64,000 bases of DNA from GCF_055900595.2 NZ_CM148325.1; one strand, 5' to 3'; positions 47,965 through 59,082 are shown, counted from the stretch's first letter. Numbers and translations: made by a program. Notes: generated by a model not told the origin, from the sequence alone.

Positions 47965-48858
<894 letters not shown>

Positions 48859-48902
48859 TTACCTCATCAATCGCTTGTAGTTATATGTTGTGTTGTGCAC
48901 AT

Positions 48903-48942
48903 CTATCCGTTTAGACGTCCAGATGTAAAGATGAAGGAAAAG
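48903..48942 (-). promoter_or_regulatory. MetJ operator (tandem met boxes) upstream of metF
   Basis: Reverse complement contains TTTACATCTGGACGTCTAAACGGATAGATG with repeated AGACGTCT-like 8-mers. Confidence 0.7.
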
Positions 48943-49237
48943 CTGAAGGGCGTCAACCGAAAAATGACCAATGATGGTGAGGAAAAATCAGGGAAGATGA
49001 AAAAAACTCATCTTAATTAGAGGTAATAAAGAGATTTCTTTATAGCGCAATCAACCTCACTCGTTTTGACTGATATACAGGCAACACAACGGCACCTGTT
49101 CTCATTCGAAAAACAACGCCCTGCCACCAGATGGTGATGCTAAAGCATCTGATTCGGCCTGCGCTCTCGTGTAGGCCGAATACAGAATCTGCGAAATCAA
49201 CTGGTAACAAACAGTAGAGTCAACTCAGTGCGTACTT

Positions 49238-50797
49238 TTATTTAATATCTTTCACGCGCATACCGTTGATCTGTTCATCCGTGATGGTGTTACCCGCTTT
49301 AAAGTAATCAACCACCGCGTGATAAACGTAATAACCGCCCGTCGTATTGCGCGCTTTACCCTCGGTAAACGCGGTAAAACCATCTCCACCATCAGCAAGG
49401 AAACTCTGAGTAGCAATGTGGTAAACCGTCGCATCTTCAATCGGTTTGCCATTCAGCGTCAGCGAGATAACCCGCTGACCAACCGGCTTGCTGCTGTCGT
49501 ACTTCATTTCCAGGCCTTTCGATACCTGTAAAACGCCATTACTTAAACTTGCGCCGTGTTCCATCAAACCGCGTAATTGTTTACCCGTGAGTTCCATCGT
49601 CACCAGTTCGTTGGGGAACGGGAAGGTACTGATGACGCCACCCATCGTAATTGCACCCGCCGGGATCTCATTGCGAATCCCACCAGAGTTGGTTAACGCC
49701 AACTGGGTATTTTTACCCGCCGCTACCAGTAAAGCGTCCGCCGCCAGGTTCCCCAGGGATGCCGATTCACCATAGGCACGTTTTAATTCAACTGGCGATT
49801 GCGCCACCGTTTGCTGCACGACTTCATCCAGCTTTTTATTCCAACTATCAATCACCTGTTTTGTTTGCGCATCGGGCTTCCACTCGTCGGCGTAAAGGGT
49901 TTTAAGCTCGAAGTTTTTCACCGTAAAAGTGTGCGGTTTCTCTTTGTAGTCGAGAACCAGTTTACCCACATCAATCCCACCGCTGTCAGTGGAGAGGATG
50001 AGCGTATTGCCGACTTTAATCGGTTCCGGCGTACCCACATGTGCATGCCCGGTGATCAAAATATCCAGCCCTTTCACCTGACTTGCCGTCTGAATATCTT
50101 TATCCAGTGCGCGGCGCACATCTGTGCCCCCCATACTGGACTGGCGGGCCGGAACACCTTCGTGAATCAGCGCAACGGTCAAATCAACCTTGCCTTTGAG
50201 TTCATCGATATAACGTTGTAGCCATTTAATTTCATCACGCGCCTCAATACCCACTCGCGTTGCCGCAGATACCGTATCATTAAAGGCAAATACACCGTGC
50301 AAACCTATAACACCAATTTTCACGCCGTCTTTTTCAATAATGGTATATGGCTTATCCCAGAATGATTTACTGCTGTTCTGATAAAAAACATTACCCTGCA
50401 CAATCGGGAATTGTGCCTGACTCAACTGTAATAACGTATTGTCCCAGCCGTGATCAAATTCATGATTACCTATAGTGGCCGCATCGAACGGCATGGTATT
50501 CATAATATCGATAATCGCCTTGCCTTTAGTCAGGCTGCTGATATACGGCCCGGTAAAATAGTCACCCGCATCAAAAAACCAGGTCGCTTTGTTTTTAGCT
50601 TTTTCTTGTTTAACAAGCGTAGTGATATTTGCCCAGCCGCCAATATCCCGTTTACCCTCAGCAATCCACGGCACTTTATAGGGCTCTACATGTGCGTGGA
50701 GGTCATTGGTATAAATAATGGTGACATCTTTGGCGCAGGCCCAAAACGGCAGTGTTAATGCGATACCCGCAGCAAGCATTTTAATTTTCATAAACAA
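49238..50797 (-). CDS. secreted 5'-nucleotidase / UDP-sugar hydrolase family metallophosphoesterase (UshA-like), paralog 1
   Basis: 519-aa ORF with a signal peptide ([18 protein letters not shown]), calcineurin-like motifs ([30 protein letters not shown]) and a C-terminal 5'-nucleotidase domain with the FPF nucleobase clamp. Start may be M3 or M7. Confidence 0.8.
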
Positions 50798-50923
50798 TCC
50801 CTTCCAGTGAGATAAAGGATTGCTACATTACGTTCTGAAAGGCTTTTTTATGTGAGAATACTCACATCCAGAGGCAATAACTGTAGGACAAAATCGACGA
50901 CCTTATGAAATCGTTGGTGATAT

Positions 50924-52051
50924 ATGTCAAATCTGTTTGCGATTAATGTCTGTAAAACGTTCGGTTGTCGAAATTTGGGATTGGCCTCATCGGAAGATTA
51001 CAGTTGGCCAGACTATAAACTGGGTTTTCCGGCACTGCACTGCCAGGCATGCGGAAGTTACCCCCCTTTGTTTGATGAACAACAATTTCGTGACTGGTTG
51101 TCAGTTCACATGACTGCGTGTGCCATAGAAACAGGGCATTTTTGTCCATCATGCTATTGTAAAGAAAAGATTTTTTATGGCCACAACCCGCATGGAACAC
51201 AACGCGTTCAATGCCGTTCATGCAAAAAAGTCTGGACTCCGAAACAGCAGCCAGCAAGAGAAATTACGTATCCCCAGTCCATTGAAACCGTTCAACTGTT
51301 CATGCCCTTTCAAGGAGCCAGCGCACTACAAAAGCTCTATGTTTTAGTCAGTCTTGACGCCACTCGTGGCAACATCCTTCATCTCTCCACGAATTATACG
51401 CAACATCAGACAGGAGACAGTCTGCGGTACAGTTACAGAGGCAATACAGAACCAACTGAGCACCATAGCGATATTGTGCAGAGGGTAGATATGCGTGAAG
51501 CGCAATTCTTGCGCCGGAGCCAGTTCGATGAAATTCAGTATGGCAGTGCTGTGCTCAAGCGCAATGGCAAGGGAGCCATACTACGCCCGGTTATCACGGC
51601 TCACGGGCATTTCAGAATACTGAAAATCCGCTTTCCACATGTCAAAACGCATATCATTTCACACGAATGTTTTCTGAGAGGCGCAATTATTACAGCCTGG
51701 GCAGATCAGTTCCGCCAACAACAAGGCGAACTTTGGTTCGTAGAAGAAGAAATCAGCGACCGTAACGCTGATATTCCCTGGCATTTTCAGGGAACGACAT
51801 ACCATGGTTGGTGGCAAAATCAGTGGCAACGCTGGGGGCAGGGGAATAACAGCAAGATGGTCTGCCTGCTCACAGGAGTCTCCTTAGAAAGGGGCGCAAA
51901 TGTTTCTCTGGCAACCAGTCGTTGCTTTATCACATGGCTGACAGACCAACACGACTTTACCCAAAGCGCGTTATTATCCGCAGGTCGCGTAACGAAAATG
52001 CTGACCTCACTGGCGTTAAAATACAATGAATCGCTCACTCCATCTTGTTAG
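50924..52051 (+). CDS. hypothetical Cys-rich protein with a transposase-type zinc-ribbon motif
   Basis: 375-aa ORF. N-terminal Cys pairs (CKTFGC, HCQACG, FCPSCYC, QCRSCKKVW); the segment CPSC...GTQRVQCRSCKKVW resembles the IS1/IS1595 transposase zinc ribbon. No recognisable DDE triad or HTH seen by eye. Confidence 0.5.
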   Translation: MSNLFAINVCKTFGCRNLGLASSEDYSWPDYKLGFPALHCQACGSYPPLFDEQQFRDWLSVHMTACAIETGHFCPSCYCKEKIFYGHNPHGTQRVQCRSCKKVWTPKQQPAREITYPQSIETVQLFMPFQGASALQKLYVLVSLDATRGNILHLSTNYTQHQTGDSLRYSYRGNTEPTEHHSDIVQRVDMREAQFLRRSQFDEIQYGSAVLKRNGKGAILRPVITAHGHFRILKIRFPHVKTHIISHECFLRGAIITAWADQFRQQQGELWFVEEEISDRNADIPWHFQGTTYHGWWQNQWQRWGQGNNSKMVCLLTGVSLERGANVSLATSRCFITWLTDQHDFTQSALLSAGRVTKMLTSLALKYNESLTPSC

Positions 52052-52280
52052 TCAATACACTCGACAAACGACCATAAATTAATGGGATCACTATTTCTCA
52101 TTTAATTAAATATATGAATGTATGACTGAAAAATATAATCACAGTCAATGTTTAATTAATAACATTATTTGTTACTAAGATCACATAATACTTTCCTGAC
52201 CTATGCTTACATAAAAATAAGACACGGAGTTCCTTTTATTTAAATAATTCAACCAATGTAACAACCCCTATCAAGGAGGG

Positions 52281-53834
52281 ATGATGAGAACTGTATTTAC
52301 GACTTTATCAGTCATATTCAGCGTGATGTTTTCTCACAGTATACTAGCTCAGGACGTTACTATTTATTATACGAATGATATTCACGCACATGTCAATCCG
52401 GCAAAAATTCCCGCTGTTGATAAGAACAGACTTGTAGGTGGTATGGCTAATATTGCAGGCATCGTTAATGAAGCGAAGAAAAAAAACAAAGATGTCTTTT
52501 TCTTTGATGCAGGCGACTATTTTACCGGTCCGTATATCAGTACCCTGACCAAAGGTGAAGCTATTATTGATATCATGAACACCATGCCCTTTGATGCGGT
52601 GTCCGTTGGTAATCACGAGTTCGATCACGGCGTGCCCAATATGGTATCTCAGTTATCAAAAGCAAAATTCCCCATTCTGCTGGGAAATATTTACTACACC
52701 GATACAAATAAACCAGTTTGGGATCATCCGTGGACTATTATCGAAAAAGATGGTTTAAAGATTGGTGTGATTGGATTGCATGGTGCATTCGCTTTCTATG
52801 ATACAGTCGCGGCAAAAGCACGTGAAGGCGTAGAAGCCAGAGACGAAATTAAATATTTAAATAAAGCACTTGCAGAATTAAAAGGTAAAGTCGACATTAC
52901 CGTTTTGCTAATTCACGAAGGTGTTCCGGCGCGTCAATCAAGCTTTGGTAGTAAAGATGTGGAGCGGCTACTACAGGCAGATATTGAGACAGCTAAAAAA
53001 GTGAATGGTGTTGATGTCTTAATTACCGGTCACGCACATGTCGGAACACCGCAACCAATAAAAGTTAATAACACATTAATTGTATCTACCGATGCATACG
53101 GCACCGACATCGGAAAACTTGTGCTTGATTACAATCCGAAAACGAAGAAAATTGATAGTTATAATGGTGAGTTAATCACCATCTTCGCAGATCAATTTAA
53201 ACCTGACACCATCGTTCAAAATACTATCGATAAATGGAGTGCAAAGCTTAACAAAATAACACAGGAAGTTGTCGGCCATTCTCCCGTAGTTTTAACACGT
53301 GAGTATGGCAGTTCTTCTTCTACCGGTAACCTTATTCTTGATGCAATGATGGAAAAAACACCAGATGCCATTGCCGGATTTCAAAATAGCGGTGGGATGC
53401 GAGCTGATTTTCCTAAAGGTGATATCACGCTGGGAGATGTTATTAGCACATTCCCCTTTAATAATGACCTCATCGAGATGGATTTGACGGGCCGCGATCT
53501 CAAATCGTTGATGACGCATGCAACCAATCTAACTAACGGTGTGTTACAGGTTTCAAAAAGCGTTGCGGTTGTCTATGACAGCAAAAAACCACTGAACCAA
53601 CGGTTAATCTCTTTCACCATTAACGGCAAACCCGTGGAAGATAATCAAACATATCGTATTGTCACGCACTCCTTTTGTGCCAGTGGTGGTGACGGTTTTG
53701 AAGCATTTTTGAATGGAAAAAATGTGAAGACGATACCGGGAACAACCTCGGCGGAATCTATCATCGATTATTTCAAAAATCATAAACCTGTCACCCCAGA
53801 CTTAACTAAACGAGTAATGGACGTCGCCAAATAA
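52281..53834 (+). CDS. secreted 5'-nucleotidase family metallophosphoesterase (UshA-like), paralog 2
   Basis: 517-aa ORF with a signal peptide (MMRTVFTTLSVIFSVMFSHSILA-QD) and the same catalytic motifs (YTNDIHAH, GDYFTGP, GNHEFD, GHAHVG, TFPF); the most divergent of the three copies. Confidence 0.8.
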   Translation: MMRTVFTTLSVIFSVMFSHSILAQDVTIYYTNDIHAHVNPAKIPAVDKNRLVGGMANIAGIVNEAKKKNKDVFFFDAGDYFTGPYISTLTKGEAIIDIMNTMPFDAVSVGNHEFDHGVPNMVSQLSKAKFPILLGNIYYTDTNKPVWDHPWTIIEKDGLKIGVIGLHGAFAFYDTVAAKAREGVEARDEIKYLNKALAELKGKVDITVLLIHEGVPARQSSFGSKDVERLLQADIETAKKVNGVDVLITGHAHVGTPQPIKVNNTLIVSTDAYGTDIGKLVLDYNPKTKKIDSYNGELITIFADQFKPDTIVQNTIDKWSAKLNKITQEVVGHSPVVLTREYGSSSSTGNLILDAMMEKTPDAIAGFQNSGGMRADFPKGDITLGDVISTFPFNNDLIEMDLTGRDLKSLMTHATNLTNGVLQVSKSVAVVYDSKKPLNQRLISFTINGKPVEDNQTYRIVTHSFCASGGDGFEAFLNGKNVKTIPGTTSAESIIDYFKNHKPVTPDLTKRVMDVAK

Positions 53835-53868
53835 AATATCATTTATCAGTCTATTTATTTAACAAGGA

Positions 53869-55494
53869 ATGCGAATGAAAACAGTGCAGCGTACTTTACT
53901 TGCCGCAACATTGCTGACTATTTTTTCGGTCTCAGCCATGGCGCAGGATGTCACGATTATTTATACCAATGATCTTCACGCTCATGTGGATTCTTATAAA
54001 GTGCCGTATATCGCAGACGGAAAACGCGACATTGGCGGCTTTGCCAATATATCTACTTTAGTAAAACAAGAGAAAGCGAAAAATAAAGCCACCTTTTATT
54101 TTGATGCTGGAGACTATTTCACCGGCCCTTATATCAGCAGTCTGACAAAGGGCGAAGCAATAATTGACATTATGAATACCATGCCTTTTGACGCAGTATC
54201 AATCGGTAATCATGAGTTTGACCATGGCTGGGATAATGCCCTGCGACAATTAAGCAAAGCGAATTTTCCTGTTTTATTGGGCAATGTTTATCATAAAGAG
54301 AGTGAGAAACCCTTCTGGAACAAGCCCTACACCATCCTGGAAAAAGATGGCATCAAGATTGGTATTATTGGGCTACACGGCGTATTTGCATTTAATGATA
54401 CGGTCTCGGAGCTCTCTCTCCAGGGACTCGATAATGACAATAATAACCGCTTTGATAAATCTTCCGAGACCCTTAAGAATCAGGGGATTGAAGCACGTGA
54501 TGAAGTGAAGTATTTGCAGCATTATATCGACGAGTTACGTGATAAGGTTGACCTCACTGTGGCGCTGGTTCATGAAGGCGTTCCGGCGCGTCAGTCCAGC
54601 ATTGGCAATACAGATGTTAGACGCGCTCTTGATAAAGATATTCAAACCGCTAGCAAGGTGAAAGGATTGGATATTCTGATTACCGGGCATGCCCACGTCG
54701 GAACGCCAGAGCCAATCAAAGTCGGCAACACCTTAATCCTTTCAACTGATAGTGGCGGTATCGATATTGGTAAATTAGTCCTTGATGTCAACCCTACAGC
54801 TCGTACCCATAAAATGAAGAGCTTTGAGCTGAAAACAGTTTATGCCGATGAATGGATACCCGATCCAACGACACAAAAAGTTATCAATGGCTGGAATAAA
54901 AAACTGGCGGATATTGTACGCCAACCAGTGGGTGAATCATCGATTGCATTAACTCGCGCCTATGGTGAGTCATCGCAACTAGGCAACCTGTTTACCGATG
55001 CAATGCTTGTCGCTGCTCCGACTGCACAGATTGCATTGATAAACTCCGGCAGCTTACGTGCGGATATAAATGCAGGCACGATTACCTTTGGCGACATTAC
55101 CAGTACATTCCCCTTCAAGAATGAACTTACTGAAATGGATCTCAGCGGTAAGGATCTGCGTAACCTACTGGAACACGGGGCATCGCTTACCAATGGCATC
55201 CTGCAAATGTCAAAAGGCGCAGAAATGCGCTATACCCCGCAGAAACCAGTAGGTCAGCGCATAGTATCTTTTAAAATTAATGGTGAAGAGATCGTTGATA
55301 CGAATATTTACCATGTTGCAACAACGACTTTCCTTGCACTGGGGGGCGATGGTTTTCTGGCATTCAAAGAAGGGAAAAATGTTCAGGTCCGCGCCGGAAA
55401 TAACATGTCCGATGTCGTGATCGATTATTTGAAGAAAGGCCACAAGATTACGCCTGCACAGGTAAATGAAATGCGGGTGGACGTTAGCAAATAA
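53869..55494 (+). CDS. secreted 5'-nucleotidase family metallophosphoesterase (UshA-like), paralog 3
   Basis: 541-aa ORF with a signal peptide (...FSVSAMA-QD) and the same motifs; very similar to paralog 1 (roughly three-quarters identical by eye) but with an extra roughly 24-aa Asn/Asp-rich insertion (ELSLQGLDNDNNNRFDKSSETLKNQG). Confidence 0.8.
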   Translation: MRMKTVQRTLLAATLLTIFSVSAMAQDVTIIYTNDLHAHVDSYKVPYIADGKRDIGGFANISTLVKQEKAKNKATFYFDAGDYFTGPYISSLTKGEAIIDIMNTMPFDAVSIGNHEFDHGWDNALRQLSKANFPVLLGNVYHKESEKPFWNKPYTILEKDGIKIGIIGLHGVFAFNDTVSELSLQGLDNDNNNRFDKSSETLKNQGIEARDEVKYLQHYIDELRDKVDLTVALVHEGVPARQSSIGNTDVRRALDKDIQTASKVKGLDILITGHAHVGTPEPIKVGNTLILSTDSGGIDIGKLVLDVNPTARTHKMKSFELKTVYADEWIPDPTTQKVINGWNKKLADIVRQPVGESSIALTRAYGESSQLGNLFTDAMLVAAPTAQIALINSGSLRADINAGTITFGDITSTFPFKNELTEMDLSGKDLRNLLEHGASLTNGILQMSKGAEMRYTPQKPVGQRIVSFKINGEEIVDTNIYHVATTTFLALGGDGFLAFKEGKNVQVRAGNNMSDVVIDYLKKGHKITPAQVNEMRVDVSK

Positions 55495-55504
55495 TAAAAA
55501 AATT

Positions 55505-55540
55505 ATAATGCCATTCATTCACTGAATGGCATTATTTTTC
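55505..55540 (+). terminator. intrinsic terminator after nucleotidase paralog 3
   Basis: Hairpin AATGCCATTCA-TTCAC-TGAATGGCATT followed by ATTTTTC. Confidence 0.7.
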
Positions 55541-55572
55541 TCTAAATCAACAATAAATAATGAGATATATTT

Positions 55573-56433
55573 ATGTGTATAAAAAAGCACGGGATAGCTT
55601 TATCGATTCTATTAATACCTTGCATTGGAAACGCTCAGGAAATTAAAAGTGAGGAAGGCTGGTTACATCAAAGCTTGAATGTCATTGGTCGCACAGACTC
55701 TCGCTTTGGCCCAAGGCTGACTAACGACCTCTACCCTGAATATACTGTAGCAGGAAGAAAAGACTGGTTTGATTTTTATGGTTATGTTGATCTACCAAAA
55801 TTCTTTGGCGTCGGCAGTCACTATGATGTTGGGATCTGGGATGAGGGCTCACCACTATTTACGGAAATAGAACCTCGGTTTTCCATTGACAAATTGACCG
55901 GATTAAATCTTGCGTTCGGCCCTTTTAAAGAATGGTTCATTGCAAACAACTATGTCTATGATATGGGTGACAACCAGTCATCCCGGCAAAGTACATGGTA
56001 TATGGGGCTTGGTACAGATATCGACACGGGTCTACCAATTAAGCTTTCTGCCAATATATACGCCAAGTATCAGTGGCAAAACTATGGTGCCGCTAATGAA
56101 AATGAATGGGACGGATATCGATTCAAAATAAAATATAGCATTCCTCTTACCCATTTATTCGGAGGGCGATTGGTATACAATAGTTTTACTAACTTTGATT
56201 TTGGCTCCGATCTTGCGGACAAATCACACAATAATAAACGAACCAGTAATGCTATTGCTTCAAGCCATATCCTTTCCCTGCTATATGAACACTGGAAATT
56301 TGCATTTACACTACGTTATTTTCACAACGGTGGACAATGGAATGCTGGGGAGAAAGTTAACTTCGGAGATGGTCCATTTGAATTAAAAAACACAGGATGG
56401 GGAACCTATACTACTATTGGTTATCAATTTTAA
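55573..56433 (+). CDS. Tsx-family outer-membrane nucleoside-specific channel (paralog of tsx)
   Basis: 286-aa ORF with a signal peptide ([23 protein letters not shown]). Long blocks match E. coli Tsx as I recall it ([83 protein letters not shown]), and the C-terminal aromatic residue is typical of beta-barrels. Confidence 0.85.
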
Positions 56434-56614
56434 ATCAGGTGATGTTTTAGATATTTTTACTTAATGCCATTTTGTAATTGTCATAAATAACTTCACCATT
56501 CACACTGTGAATTCATCGCTCAACACAAAAGCCCCCTTATTACCGGGGCACTGACCAAAGGCAAAATGACAATCAATCACCACCTCCGCAGGAGGTGGTT
56601 TAGAGGTGACAACA

Positions 56615-56641
56615 AAAGCTGGCAACTGCCAGCTTTTGTTC
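56615..56641. terminator. bidirectional intrinsic terminator downstream of metL
   Basis: Perfect palindrome AACAAAAGCTGGCA-ACT-GCCAGCTTTTGTT immediately 3' of the metL stop; a second hairpin ACCACCTCC-GCA-GGAGGTGGT lies at 56578..56598. Confidence 0.75.
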
Positions 56642-56649
56642 AATAATCA

Positions 56650-59082
56650 CTACAACAACTGCGCCAGACGGTTAATATCCGACTGAATCGCCCCAGCGGT
56701 GACGTCGCGCCCTGCACCTGGCCCGCGGATCACCAGCGGGTTGTCGCGATACCAGCGGCTTTCGATGGCAAAGACGTTATCGCACGGTAGTAGTGATGCC
56801 AGCGGATGGTCTTCACGCACCGCTTCCACGCCCACTCGCGCTTTGCCGTTGGCATCGAAACGCGCCACGTAGCGCAACACCAGCCCCATTTCACGGGCCG
56901 CTTCCAACCGTTGTACCATCTGCTCATTAAGTTCATCGCCATTTTCAAAGAAATGGTCGATGCTTCCACCTTCGCAATGGGTTGGCACCAGTGATTCAAC
57001 ACGCACCTGGTCCGGTTCAATGTTGTAACCCGCTTCACGCGCCAGAATCACCAGCTTGCGCATCACATCTTTGCCGGAGAGGTCATCACGCGGGTCAGGT
57101 TCAGTTAAGCCCTGCTGCCACGCCTGATCCACCAGCTCAGTAAACGGCACGCTACCGTCGAATTGCAGGAACAGCCAGGAGAGCGTGCCGGAGAAGATCC
57201 CGCTGATCGACAAAATAGTGTCGCCGCTGTCGATCAGATCGCGCACGGTATGGTTGATCGGCAAACCTGCGCCGACGGTGGCGTTGTATAGCCAGTGACG
57301 CCCGGTTTTTTCGAACGCGTCGTGGATCTGGCGATATTTATTGCTGTCGCTCGCTCCCGCCAGTTTGTTGGCACTGATGACGTGGAAACCGTGGCTGGCG
57401 AAATCGAGATACTGATCAGCAAGCTGCTGGCTGGCAGTAACGTCCAGCACAACTAAATCATCATACGGATGGGCACGCATCCACAGGAATAGCGACTCTT
57501 CATCCTGTTCGACGGCTTCATCATTAAAGAAGGCTAGCGCACGGCTGGCGTCCAGCCCGTCATAGCTCAACAGGCTGCGACGGCTGTCCACCACGCCTGC
57601 CAGCACAAATTCAAAGCCGGTGCGCGCCGAGAGCGTGCTCTGCTCACGGGCGAACAGTTCCAGCCAGCGGGAACCGATATTGCCCTTACCGAACAATACC
57701 AGGCCGATGCGTTTTTCTGCGCGGAAGACGGACTGATGCAGCCCCTGAATCAGGCTTTCGGTCGGGCCGGTGCGCAGTACTGCCACCAGGCTGATGCCGT
57801 CATCGGACTGCCAGGTAAACTCGACCGGCTGGCCTTTCAGTTGCTGCCAGAAGCGGTGGCAATGCAGCGGGTTACGGGTGACGCCCGCCCCAACCATCGC
57901 CACCAGCGCCAGCCCCTGACGCAGACGCAGTTCGCCGGGTAATCCTGCTTCGTCGAGGATTTTCAGCGCACTGTCGGCCACTTCCGAGGTGTAGCAAAAT
58001 TGCAGCAACTGGCGATCGTTATGCACGCCAACTGCCAGTGGGCGCACCTGAGCACGTTTCAGGATTTGGTCGATCTCTTTATGCGCCAGTTTAAAATCCT
58101 GACTGGCGGGCACCTGAAACTCAATCAAACAGACATCATCGTGGCTGGTGACAATACGCGCGCCAGTACCTGAGGCCAGCACGCGTTCAATGCGCGTGGA
58201 ACCTTGATCCGGCGTGTAGCTACAGCGCAGCTGCAGGTCGATTTCGCTGCCAGAAACTGGCTGTAAAGTACGGGCGTGAAGAACGGGGGCCGCCAGACGC
58301 GCCAGTTCGCTGGCTTCATCCAGACGCAGCAACGGCAGCAGGCAGGCGTCTTTCACTTTACGCGGGTCGGCGCTATATACCCCGGCGACATCGCTCCAGA
58401 TGGTTACGCGGGAAACTCCCGCCAGCGCACCGATTTGTGTCGCGGAATAGTCGGAACCGTTACGCCCCAGCAGCACCGTTTCACCGGCGTTGTTGCGGCT
58501 GATAAATCCGGTCACCACCAGGCGTTTGCCCGGATGTTGCACCAGTAGTTGTTGCAGCAATGGGTACGAAAGGCCTTCATCAACCTGTGGTTGCGCGGCA
58601 CGTTCAGCGCGTAAAAACTCGCGGGCATCAAGCCAGGCCGCAGGCAATCCTTGTTGATTAAGCACCGCAGACATTAAGCGTGCCGACCACACTTCCCCGT
58701 GGCCCACCACTTCTGCATACACCGCATCATTAATACCGCTGTCGAGCAGCGCCGCGAGGCGTTCCAGATCGCTGACAAAGGCGCTAATGAGGCTATCGGC
58801 TTCTTCGGCGGGTAGCAGGCCGCTAATCAGATCGCACTGATAGCGACGCAGCGTTTGTTGAACCTGATGCGCAGAGAGACGATCGGCCTGGCTTAGTTTC
58901 AACCAGTTAATCAACTGGTTAGTGGTGCTACCGGCGGCGGAAACCACCATCATATCGTCAGGCTGAGAGTACTCCGCCATAATGCCCGCGACACGCAAAT
59001 AACACTTCACATCAGCCAGACTACTGCCACCAAATTTATGCAGTTGACGACCTTTCGCCCCTGCCTGCGCAATCACACTCAT
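56650..59082 (-). CDS. metL: bifunctional aspartokinase II / homoserine dehydrogenase II
   Basis: 810-aa ORF (MSVIAQAGAKGRQLHKFGGSSLADVKCYLRVAGIMAEY...) with an N-terminal aspartokinase domain and a C-terminal homoserine dehydrogenase domain. Confidence 0.95.
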   Translation of the reverse strand: MSVIAQAGAKGRQLHKFGGSSLADVKCYLRVAGIMAEYSQPDDMMVVSAAGSTTNQLINWLKLSQADRLSAHQVQQTLRRYQCDLISGLLPAEEADSLISAFVSDLERLAALLDSGINDAVYAEVVGHGEVWSARLMSAVLNQQGLPAAWLDAREFLRAERAAQPQVDEGLSYPLLQQLLVQHPGKRLVVTGFISRNNAGETVLLGRNGSDYSATQIGALAGVSRVTIWSDVAGVYSADPRKVKDACLLPLLRLDEASELARLAAPVLHARTLQPVSGSEIDLQLRCSYTPDQGSTRIERVLASGTGARIVTSHDDVCLIEFQVPASQDFKLAHKEIDQILKRAQVRPLAVGVHNDRQLLQFCYTSEVADSALKILDEAGLPGELRLRQGLALVAMVGAGVTRNPLHCHRFWQQLKGQPVEFTWQSDDGISLVAVLRTGPTESLIQGLHQSVFRAEKRIGLVLFGKGNIGSRWLELFAREQSTLSARTGFEFVLAGVVDSRRSLLSYDGLDASRALAFFNDEAVEQDEESLFLWMRAHPYDDLVVLDVTASQQLADQYLDFASHGFHVISANKLAGASDSNKYRQIHDAFEKTGRHWLYNATVGAGLPINHTVRDLIDSGDTILSISGIFSGTLSWLFLQFDGSVPFTELVDQAWQQGLTEPDPRDDLSGKDVMRKLVILAREAGYNIEPDQVRVESLVPTHCEGGSIDHFFENGDELNEQMVQRLEAAREMGLVLRYVARFDANGKARVGVEAVREDHPLASLLPCDNVFAIESRWYRDNPLVIRGPGAGRDVTAGAIQSDINRLAQLL

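Follow-up and report, generated by a model that had tools for sequence, protein, structure and literature searches.

The region between metL and metF in Escherichia coli BEN2908 and in other B2 strains of extraintestinal pathogenic (ExPEC) and adherent-invasive (AIEC) E. coli has been listed as GR 31 (PMC12928451, PLoS One 2026). In the passages of that paper that were searched, GR 31 has the interval and the gene set, a Tsx-like gene and three open reading frames (ORFs) with UshA domains, of the block considered here, which lies in a 64,000-nucleotide stretch of NZ_CM148325.1 (GCF_055900595.2; referred to below, at its full length, as the window) and consists of three genes for 5'-nucleotidase-family enzymes (nucA, nucB, and nucC), a gene for a Cys-rich protein, and a gene for a Tsx-like porin. 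The same passages propose, in silico, a coordinated system for the processing, degradation, and transport of nucleosides and nucleotides; they offer predictions for four ORFs and none for the Cys-rich gene, do not address regulation or ancestry outside E. coli, and report no experiments on the region. The main idea, that of a nucleoside system, is already published there as an in-silico inference. An earlier note on this DNA had been unable to map the block to anything named; its listing as GR 31, together with a crystallised ortholog of nucA (see below), settles that point otherwise. An argument about ancestry, the distinction of three conserved enzyme types, a conserved CRP architecture, and the treatment of the 'hypothetical' Cys-rich gene as a member of a transposase-derived family tied to nucleoside genes were found neither in those passages of PMC12928451 nor in literature searches.

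The individual parts of the block also have described counterparts. UshA, the periplasmic UDP-sugar hydrolase/5'-nucleotidase of E. coli, shares its two-domain architecture, its metal and catalytic motifs, and its compartment with the block enzymes, which differ from it in being distant paralogs (150-165 bits against a cut-off of 600), in being three in number, and in being linked to a porin gene and a regulator-like gene. Classical Tsx (PDB 1TLW/1TLY/1TLZ) passes nucleosides, not nucleotides; the porin of the block matches it over its full length and has its transport-critical residues, but is 59% identical and has an altered loop 198-207. To the CytR/DeoR-CRP nucleoside regulon (tsx, deo, udp, cdd, nupC, nupG) there is a functional resemblance only, in that CRP-type sites stand before nucleoside-utilisation genes with a second regulator nearby; the candidate regulator here, the Cys-rich protein, is unrelated to the LacI or DeoR families. 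That protein does have features of the insertion sequence IS1. With InsA, a DNA-binding repressor, and InsAB' it has in common an InsA-type zinc ribbon (the adjoining helix-turn-helix, HTH, is matched in distant family members only), and with DDE enzymes an RNase H-like fold, which forms its C-terminal body. Unlike IS1, the family has no conserved acidic triad and carries an extra N-terminal zinc ribbon, its members are 375-570 residues long as against 232 for InsAB', and the gene here is single-copy and has no terminal repeats.

We favor, at a probability of roughly 0.55, the reading that the block is a catabolite (CRP)-controlled locus for scavenging external nucleotides, with the Cys-rich protein as its dedicated regulator or sensor; the regulatory role is held to be less probable for the subgroup without an HTH, to which the window protein belongs. 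Within this scheme, the three periplasmic paralogs, which probably differ in substrate range, would strip phosphate from nucleotides and their derivatives, a dedicated Tsx-type channel would ease the passage of nucleosides at low concentration, and the core inner-membrane transporters together with the deo/udp/cdd enzymes would complete nucleoside use. Transcription would start in two control regions, both of which contain a CRP-type site, and the divergently transcribed Cys-rich protein would act as a regulator or sensor specific to the locus. It would have come from an IS1-type transposase, keeping the InsA zinc ribbon and the RNase H-like core; the acidic residues of catalysis would have been lost, as would the HTH in this subgroup. 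The history would be one in which nucA and the Cys-rich gene are old residents, a pair that was lost from two thirds of complete E. coli genomes, the K-12-type ones included, and to which nucB-nucC-tsx was added later. The features of the locus are as follows.

47965-48855, minus strand: metF, the left flank.
48856-49005: the shared metF promoter/operator side of the spacer, outside the variable block.
49006-49237: leftmost part of the variable segment, beyond the 3' end of nucA, with a palindrome that reads as REP-like (repetitive extragenic palindromic); no K-12-type counterpart.
49238-50791, minus strand: nucA, type A periplasmic 5'-nucleotidase-family phosphoesterase, 517 residues (the ORF can be extended to 50797 by way of a TTG start).
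50792-50923: divergent control region between nucA and the Cys-rich gene.
50924-52051, plus strand: gene for the Cys-rich protein, 375 residues, the proposed regulator of the locus; 'hypothetical protein' in RefSeq.
52052-52283: control region of nucB.
52284-53834, plus strand: nucB, type B periplasmic 5'-nucleotidase-family phosphoesterase.
53875-55494, plus strand: nucC, type C periplasmic 5'-nucleotidase-family phosphoesterase.
55505-55535, plus strand: hairpin in the nucC-tsx spacer (13-bp stem, then a T-run); a possible attenuator or partial terminator.
55573-56433, plus strand: tsx-like gene, a Tsx-family outer-membrane nucleoside channel paralog of 286 residues.
56579-56599: hairpin after tsx.
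56611-56640: perfect palindrome with 14-bp arms that abuts the metL stop codon; terminator-like, shared or bidirectional.
56650-59082, minus strand: metL, the right flank.

An ORF listing and the annotation in RefSeq of an E. coli chromosome with 100% identity over the block (strain E200086) place five genes, all intact, between the metF operator and the end of metL, just as the earlier note had described, and the note's account of three UshA-family nucleotidases with signal peptides and intact motifs is upheld as well. The products of nucA, nucB, and nucC match NCBIfam models of the 5'-nucleotidase/UshA/YfkN type with E values of 1e-44 to 1e-58, and nucC, the one nucleotidase put through the Pfam scan, contains Metallophos (9e-11) and 5_nucleotid_C (1e-36). 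All three align end to end with one another and with 5'-nucleotidase structures, and thus have the two-domain architecture; the motifs for dimetal binding and catalysis (DxH, GD, GNHE/D, H, GHxH) are invariant among them, as are the aromatic base clamp and GGDGF. Each begins with a basic-hydrophobic leader that, as read from the sequence, ends in an AxA-type site. Because the Cys at -2 in nucA lies outside any lipobox and is missing in Citrobacter, the enzymes are taken to be soluble periplasmic proteins. By their scores, nucA, nucB, and nucC are members of the family rather than orthologs of any named enzyme. A solved ortholog structure exists for nucA: PDB 3IVD/3IVE, entitled 'Nucleotidase', is matched at 1105 bits over residues 21-519, as compared with 635 bits for nucB. 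We take this entry to be a structural-genomics target, E. coli CFT073 c4898, with uridine or cytidine bound. A literature search for c4897, c4898, and c4899 returned nothing relevant, and no paper describing the activity of 3IVD/3IVE was found.

The enzymes fall into three types that are kept across genera. Among type A enzymes (window nucA, ST131, Citrobacter, and Enterobacter) pairwise identity is 88-97%, and identity to the orthologs of other genera is 86-98% overall. For type B, window nucB is 70-72% identical to genes of the Enterobacter/Klebsiella modules and 92% identical to that of Citrobacter enshiensis; for type C, window nucC is 86-87% identical to genes of a Klebsiella sp. and C. 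enshiensis, and has a conserved, type-specific insert of ~24 residues. The ratio of nonsynonymous to synonymous divergence (dN/dS) of the nucleotidases is 0.02-0.09, and the maintenance of three types across genera at such values argues for distinct jobs. (It may be noted that nucA 49950-50728 forms an inverted paralogous repeat with nucB 52445-52854 and nucC 53947-54785, in segments of 300-460 nt at 70-76% identity; such a repeat might allow inversion or gene conversion, and the differing gene orders in other genera may have to do with it.)

The last gene of the block was correctly recognised in the earlier note as a Tsx paralog, since its product passes the NCBIfam model NF011686 at 491.8 bits (cut-off 311); it also aligns in full with the Tsx structure 1TLW (phmmer 1.4e-114, residues 29-286). 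Mutation of Tsx residues F27, G28, S217, G239, or G240 abolishes nucleoside transport (PMC6499177), and the tsx-like porin has the same five residues when it is aligned to 1TLW. Its identity is 59% to K-12 Tsx and 58-59% to the tsx products of the Enterobacter/Klebsiella modules, and it forms a separate lineage, in which the sole close relative outside E. coli is that of C. enshiensis (85%). The extracellular loop of Tsx at residues 198-207 has been associated with Tsx-specific phages (PMC6499177); the equivalent loop of the porin carries a 5-residue deletion and several substitutions, and the protein might take up nucleosides without serving as a receptor for such phages; its behaviour towards phage T6 and colicin K, both of which use Tsx, may differ accordingly. 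The hairpin at 55505-55535 has T-runs on both strands, and transcription of tsx may be partly uncoupled from that of nucB-nucC.

Both control regions contain CRP-type sites. In the spacer between nucA and the Cys-rich gene, TGTGAGAATACTCACA at 50851-50866 is a perfect CRP consensus core (TGTGA-N6-TCACA), and it is the sole perfect match in the window. Across 24 loci from more than 10 genera, the position of this site is fixed and its TCACA half is invariant. When the nucA start is predicted from a conserved TAAnGT -10 element, we read the site as lying near -41.5, a class II-like position. The same 24 loci have three other near-invariant blocks, TTACGTTCTGAAAG at 50828-50841, CAAAATC..CGACC at 50889-50902, and AAATCGTTGGT at 50908-50918, the last of which overlaps the likely ribosome-binding site; these are candidate sites for a locus-specific factor. 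No CytR-type operator was recognised by eye in this conserved region. An RNA hairpin before the start codon of the Cys-rich gene (CAACGA...TCGTTG) was rejected because its left arm varies without compensation while its right arm is invariant, and a scan of 48700-56800 found no Rfam family at gathering score. Upstream of nucB, an island of ~50 bp holds the palindrome AATGTT-N8-AACATT (52147-52166) and the CRP-like sequence TGTTACTAAGATCACA (52170-52185), TGTTA-N6-TCACA, with one mismatch to the CRP core. This island is nearly identical in C. enshiensis, in contrast to the rest of the spacer, which has diverged; a promoter-like match follows at 52219-52248.

The role of the Cys-rich protein is suggested chiefly by the company that its gene keeps. 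The earlier note had called the protein an orphan, and this did not hold: 252 close database relatives, labelled 'cytoplasmic protein', are found at E<=0.001 in Escherichia, Citrobacter, Enterobacter, Klebsiella, Kluyvera, Pluralibacter, and Pseudocitrobacter. An exhaustive profile search of 1.84 billion cluster representatives recovered only 137 relatives, and by the names of structural neighbours the family ranges over Enterobacterales and Vibrionales. In close relatives, the Cys-rich gene is always divergent from a nucleotidase gene, with a spacer of ~133 bp. The neighbourhoods of eight distant relatives (<45% identity) are as follows.

P0136: a nupC-type transporter gene and a nucleoside phosphorylase gene, divergent.
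P0142: genes for a deoB-type mutase, a phosphorylase, and a nupG-type symporter, divergent.
P0153: an adenosine deaminase gene (add), deoC, deoA, and deoB, divergent; a Bmp-type nucleoside ABC system downstream.
P0123: a nucleotidase gene.
P0129: a nucleotidase gene.
P0165: a nucleotidase gene.
L042 (Vibrio aquaticus): a nucleotidase-like gene; nupC lies at a distance of 5 kb.
P0146: a short contig, on which no nucleoside gene is in view.

Thus seven of the eight adjoin nucleoside or nucleotide genes that are functionally related and yet not homologous, an association that by our own informal estimate exceeds chance by far, and it is mainly for this reason that a role in the control of such genes is assigned to the Cys-rich protein. 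In addition, CRP-like sites (at least 9 of the 10 core bases) are present in 5 of 7 control regions beside distant relatives, as against ~0.2 expected from the background rate across all fetched loci. A literature search for InsA-type regulators of nucleoside genes returned nothing relevant.

The protein itself has 14 Cys in its 375 residues. Eight of these, C10/C15/C40/C43 and C74/C77/C97/C100, make up two 4-Cys zinc ribbons of the CxxC...CxxC type and are invariant among close relatives; the second ribbon is InsA-type, and an RNase H/integrase-like fold lies C-terminal to the ribbons. The relationship to IS1 is faint in the window protein alone, whose match to Pfam Zn_ribbon_InsA has an E value of 0.14, and becomes visible in the family. 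Zn_ribbon_InsA is matched at E<=0.001 by 7 of the 49 members of the family alignment, the family profile aligns with IS1 InsA (hhalign; the InsA query was checked against annotated IS1 copies) at 97% probability over ribbon and HTH, and distant members match the NCBIfam models of IS1 and the IS1595 zinc domain. A profile comparison with IS1 InsB gave no match, which is a weak test given its single-sequence target. The sequence 'SQFDEIQYGSA' was considered as an IS1595-type 'DE' motif and rejected, since the family conserves no acidic triad and since the AF2 model puts the sequence in the loop that precedes strand 4 instead of in strand 1. More distant 'cytoplasmic protein' paralogs of the fold, at ~21-23% identity, are also encoded by E. 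coli and Salmonella according to AFDB (A0A828N132 from E. coli and A0A8X6EQK0 from Salmonella Dublin).

These similarities to transposases leave room for a protein that is not a regulator at all, either a remnant or still-mobile transposase with the nucleotidases as its cargo, or an enzyme of nucleoside metabolism or nucleic-acid-binding factor that merely shares promoters with its neighbours. We consider this unlikely. Besides the RNase H/integrase-like fold and the InsA ribbon, it could draw on the name 'IS1 family transposase' that databases give to distant relatives, on the lack of the HTH in the window subgroup, on the fact that the Cys-rich gene evolves faster than its neighbours, and on the placement of the module at different chromosomal sites in Enterobacter, a Klebsiella sp., Pluralibacter, and Rahnella. 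Against it, no acidic residue is invariant among the 49 family members, so that no DDE triad is conserved on the RNase H-like core, and the IS1 score of the window protein is 19.6 bits where the NCBIfam cut-off is 100. The gene is found in one place per genome, with one copy in the window, and has no terminal inverted or direct repeats; its metF-metL position is fixed in ~ten genera. It is under purifying selection, with a dN/dS of 0.12 relative to ST131 and 0.24 relative to SF-166, in both cases below 0.25 (0.01-0.11 for its neighbours). Finally, non-homologous nucleoside genes beside distant relatives are not what a cargo model predicts. From the single copy, the absence of terminal repeats, and the purifying selection we infer that the protein is transposase-derived and inactive as a nuclease.

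Several observations weigh against the proposal that the block is a CRP-controlled scavenging locus with the Cys-rich protein as its regulator. The case is argued in silico from beginning to end. None of the three enzymes reaches the NCBIfam equivalog cut-off for UshA (NF007109, 150-165 bits where 600 is required), nor those for NadN (122-132 versus 436), CpdB (81-102 versus 486), or SoxB (148-154 versus 550). The porin is linked to the periplasmic nucleotidases only indirectly, since classical Tsx passes nucleosides and not nucleotides. The promoter geometry of nucA is our reading of the sequence and refers to a predicted rather than a mapped start, and the blocks conserved in the first control region outside its CRP site are not found again before nucB, for which reason an operator shared between the two regions was rejected. 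Among the distant relatives, P0146 stands apart from the nucleoside association. As to the regulatory role, the Enterobacteriaceae subgroup of the window lacks a segment of ~50 residues that in distant relatives holds the InsA-type HTH, and the AF2 model of the window protein shows no helical domain at residues 98-118; DNA binding would then depend on the zinc ribbons, unless the protein acts through a partner. On the other side, the suggestion of the earlier note that the block dephosphorylates nucleotides and takes up the resulting nucleosides is plausible in silico, and fits the CRP sites, the retained Tsx residues, and the nucleoside-gene neighbours of the Cys-rich relatives.

The comparison with K-12 shows what kind of difference separates the two arrangements. 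As the earlier note had supposed, the block is absent from K-12: in the K-12-type chromosome NZ_CP137709.1, the metF-metL spacer is just 348 bp, of which only the first 150 bp, the metF promoter side (to 49005), match the window. The corresponding window sequence, 48856-49005, has 99.3% identity to these 150 bp and is found in 5425 of 5426 complete E. coli genomes, and the comparison sets the variable segment at 49006-56649. The remaining 198 bp of the K-12-type spacer have no similarity to the window or to the locus forms of ST131, the Citrobacter freundii group, or C. enshiensis. Because they match no window sequence, the occupied and K-12-type states differ by replacement rather than by clean insertion; because they resemble no occupied form that was compared, a deletion scar in K-12 was rejected. 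(The 198 bp are L003 4151-4348; in this K-12-type spacer RefSeq places a hypothetical protein of 44 residues across the boundary between shared and unique sequence. In the window, an ORF of 167 residues, 48517-49020 on the plus strand, lies antisense to the start and promoter of metF; odd in composition and otherwise unsupported, it is unlikely to be a gene.)

The composition of the block had suggested to the earlier note a foreign origin, and one could suppose that all 7.6 kb are a recent foreign island inserted into an ancestral, tight metL-metF junction. The A/T-richness itself is real: G+C is 0.48 in nucA, 0.47 in the Cys-rich gene, 0.41 in nucB, 0.44 in nucC, and 0.40 in tsx, as compared with 0.52 in metF, 0.58 in metL, a range of 0.52-0.58 for metF, metL, and katG, and 0.50 for the whole window. 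The absence of the block from 66% of complete E. coli genomes and the deeply divergent alleles within the species would also fit such an island. However, a scan of one genome per species, with neighbours classed by tblastn, finds the order metF-nucA-Cys-rich gene-metL in ~ten enterobacterial genera: in several Citrobacter, Pseudocitrobacter, Escherichia whittamii and other Escherichia, Kosakonia, Klebsiella pneumoniae, K. oxytoca, and K. spallanzanii, and likewise in Phytobacter, Superficieibacter, Kluyvera, and Salmonella enterica subsp. arizonae. In spite of the atypical composition, the marks of a site-specific integration island (integrase, tRNA, direct repeats, target duplication) are absent; the block is not bounded by terminal repeats, inverted or direct, the only repeats detected being those of nucleotidase paralogy, and the K-12 spacer is a replacement, not an empty target site. 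A defence or phage origin was rejected, there being no PADLOC match and a single PHROG match, to a transposase zinc ribbon. A recent island comprising the whole block is thus very improbable. The synteny argues that the pair of nucA and the Cys-rich gene is ancestral to the interval and that the K-12 state arose by loss or replacement; it contradicts foreign insertion for this pair, as far as can be judged from gene order, and not for nucB-nucC-tsx. For these three genes the note's idea of acquisition may well stand, in that their low G+C (0.40-0.44) and patchy distribution make them look like a later addition.

Within E. coli the interval occurs in three states: empty, in ~66% of genomes, including K-12-type and O145; with nucA and the Cys-rich gene only, as in ST131, whose Cys-rich gene extends into the end of metL; and with all five genes. 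Among the 5,426 complete genomes, nucA is present in 1,843 (34%) and nucB-nucC-tsx in 660 (12%), and the genes of the block are always chromosomal and found once per genome. The window allele of nucB-nucC-tsx recurs at 99% identity or more in 97 genomes, and the common B2-type allele is ~96.6% identical to it; for the block, the common B2 allele has 94-97% DNA identity to the window. Outside E. coli, C. enshiensis has the exact five-gene layout of the window between metF and metL, plus one extra membrane-protein gene. (This gene, which follows tsx at L048 11292-12275 and is absent from the window, encodes a protein of 327 residues that is multi-pass hydrophobic by sequence and has no Pfam match; it could be an inner-membrane transporter of the same system.) Elsewhere on the chromosome, the Cys-rich gene is found in Enterobacter, one Klebsiella sp., Pluralibacter, Silvania, and Rahnella, and as a second copy in Citrobacter sp. 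wls619; at such sites it is divergent from operons of the form nucA-nucB-tsx, nucB-tsx-nucC, or nucA-nucB-tsx-nucC.

Of all genes at the locus, the Cys-rich gene consistently evolves fastest, and the E. coli forms carry deeply diverged alleles of it. Between the window and ST131, amino acid identity and synonymous divergence (dS) are 99% and 0.23 for metF, 99.5% and 0.21 for metL, 97% and 0.38 for nucA, and 72% and 1.67, a saturated value, for the Cys-rich gene. Relative to the five-gene B2 allele of SF-166, the Cys-rich protein is 88.8% identical and its neighbours 97-98%, and between genera the corresponding figures are 57-73% for the Cys-rich protein versus 86-91% for nucA. The dS of ~0.2 that separates metF and metL from those of the B2 strains (ST131, SF-166) gives the impression of being high for a within-species comparison, and points to allelic lineages of long standing or to recombination near the variable interval. 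In Salmonella enterica subsp. arizonae (L038 6001-6726) only residues 127-368 of the Cys-rich protein were matched, and truncated versions from Salmonella are numerous in AFDB; in that genus the gene may be undergoing decay.

A further possibility is that the enzymes serve interaction with a host, mainly destroying the signalling nucleotides of host or competitors (extracellular ATP/ADP, NAD, cyclic dinucleotides) and making adenosine, with nutrition secondary. Surface 5'-nucleotidases of Gram-positive pathogens act in this way on signalling nucleotides, yielding adenosine. Many of the carrier genomes here are from blood, urine, or poultry isolates, and matches of the enzymes to the ecto-5'-nucleotidase models Nt5e_LPXTG and NadN have E values of 1e-35 to 1e-45, under the cut-offs of these models. 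The five-gene form has been reported from B2-group ExPEC, avian pathogenic (APEC), and AIEC strains (PMC12928451). Yet the nucA and Cys-rich pair is kept in the environmental or plant-associated Kosakonia, Phytobacter, and Superficieibacter, genes of ordinary catabolism (deo, nupC, nupG) are found beside those for Cys-rich relatives, the CRP sites point to control by carbon source, and the enzymes carry no cell-surface anchors and hence would be periplasmic. A primary role in host interaction is, in our judgement, quite improbable, and nutrient scavenging under CRP is preferred.

A broader proposal can be made for the Cys-rich family, one that we hold tentatively and at somewhat less than even odds. 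The family would be an unrecognised class of transcription factor or sensor, derived from an IS1-type transposase and acting with CRP on nucleoside and nucleotide genes in Enterobacterales and Vibrionales, and thus a functional analogue of CytR/DeoR with an unrelated fold. Such a protein may combine the InsA zinc ribbon (and, in most members, the HTH) with a dead RNase H-like core that has been re-used as a module for binding nucleosides or nucleotides.

As a set of genes, the block is ordinary: it is routinely annotated, in hundreds of E. coli genomes, an in-silico description is in print, and a crystal structure exists for one of its enzymes. What changes is the direction of the event, since the synteny suggests that K-12 lost an old enterobacterial pair of nucleotidase and regulator, rather than that pathogenic strains gained it. 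About one third of complete E. coli genomes, including major extraintestinal lineages, have one to three extra periplasmic nucleotidases, and in some there is also a second Tsx pore, whose phage-receptor loop is altered. These proteins could affect the use of nucleotides from the host or from lysed cells, the levels of extracellular ATP and adenosine, and the sensitivity to Tsx-dependent phages, colicins, and antibiotics. The Cys-rich protein, for its part, would offer a testable case of a transposase turned host regulator of a classical catabolic pathway.

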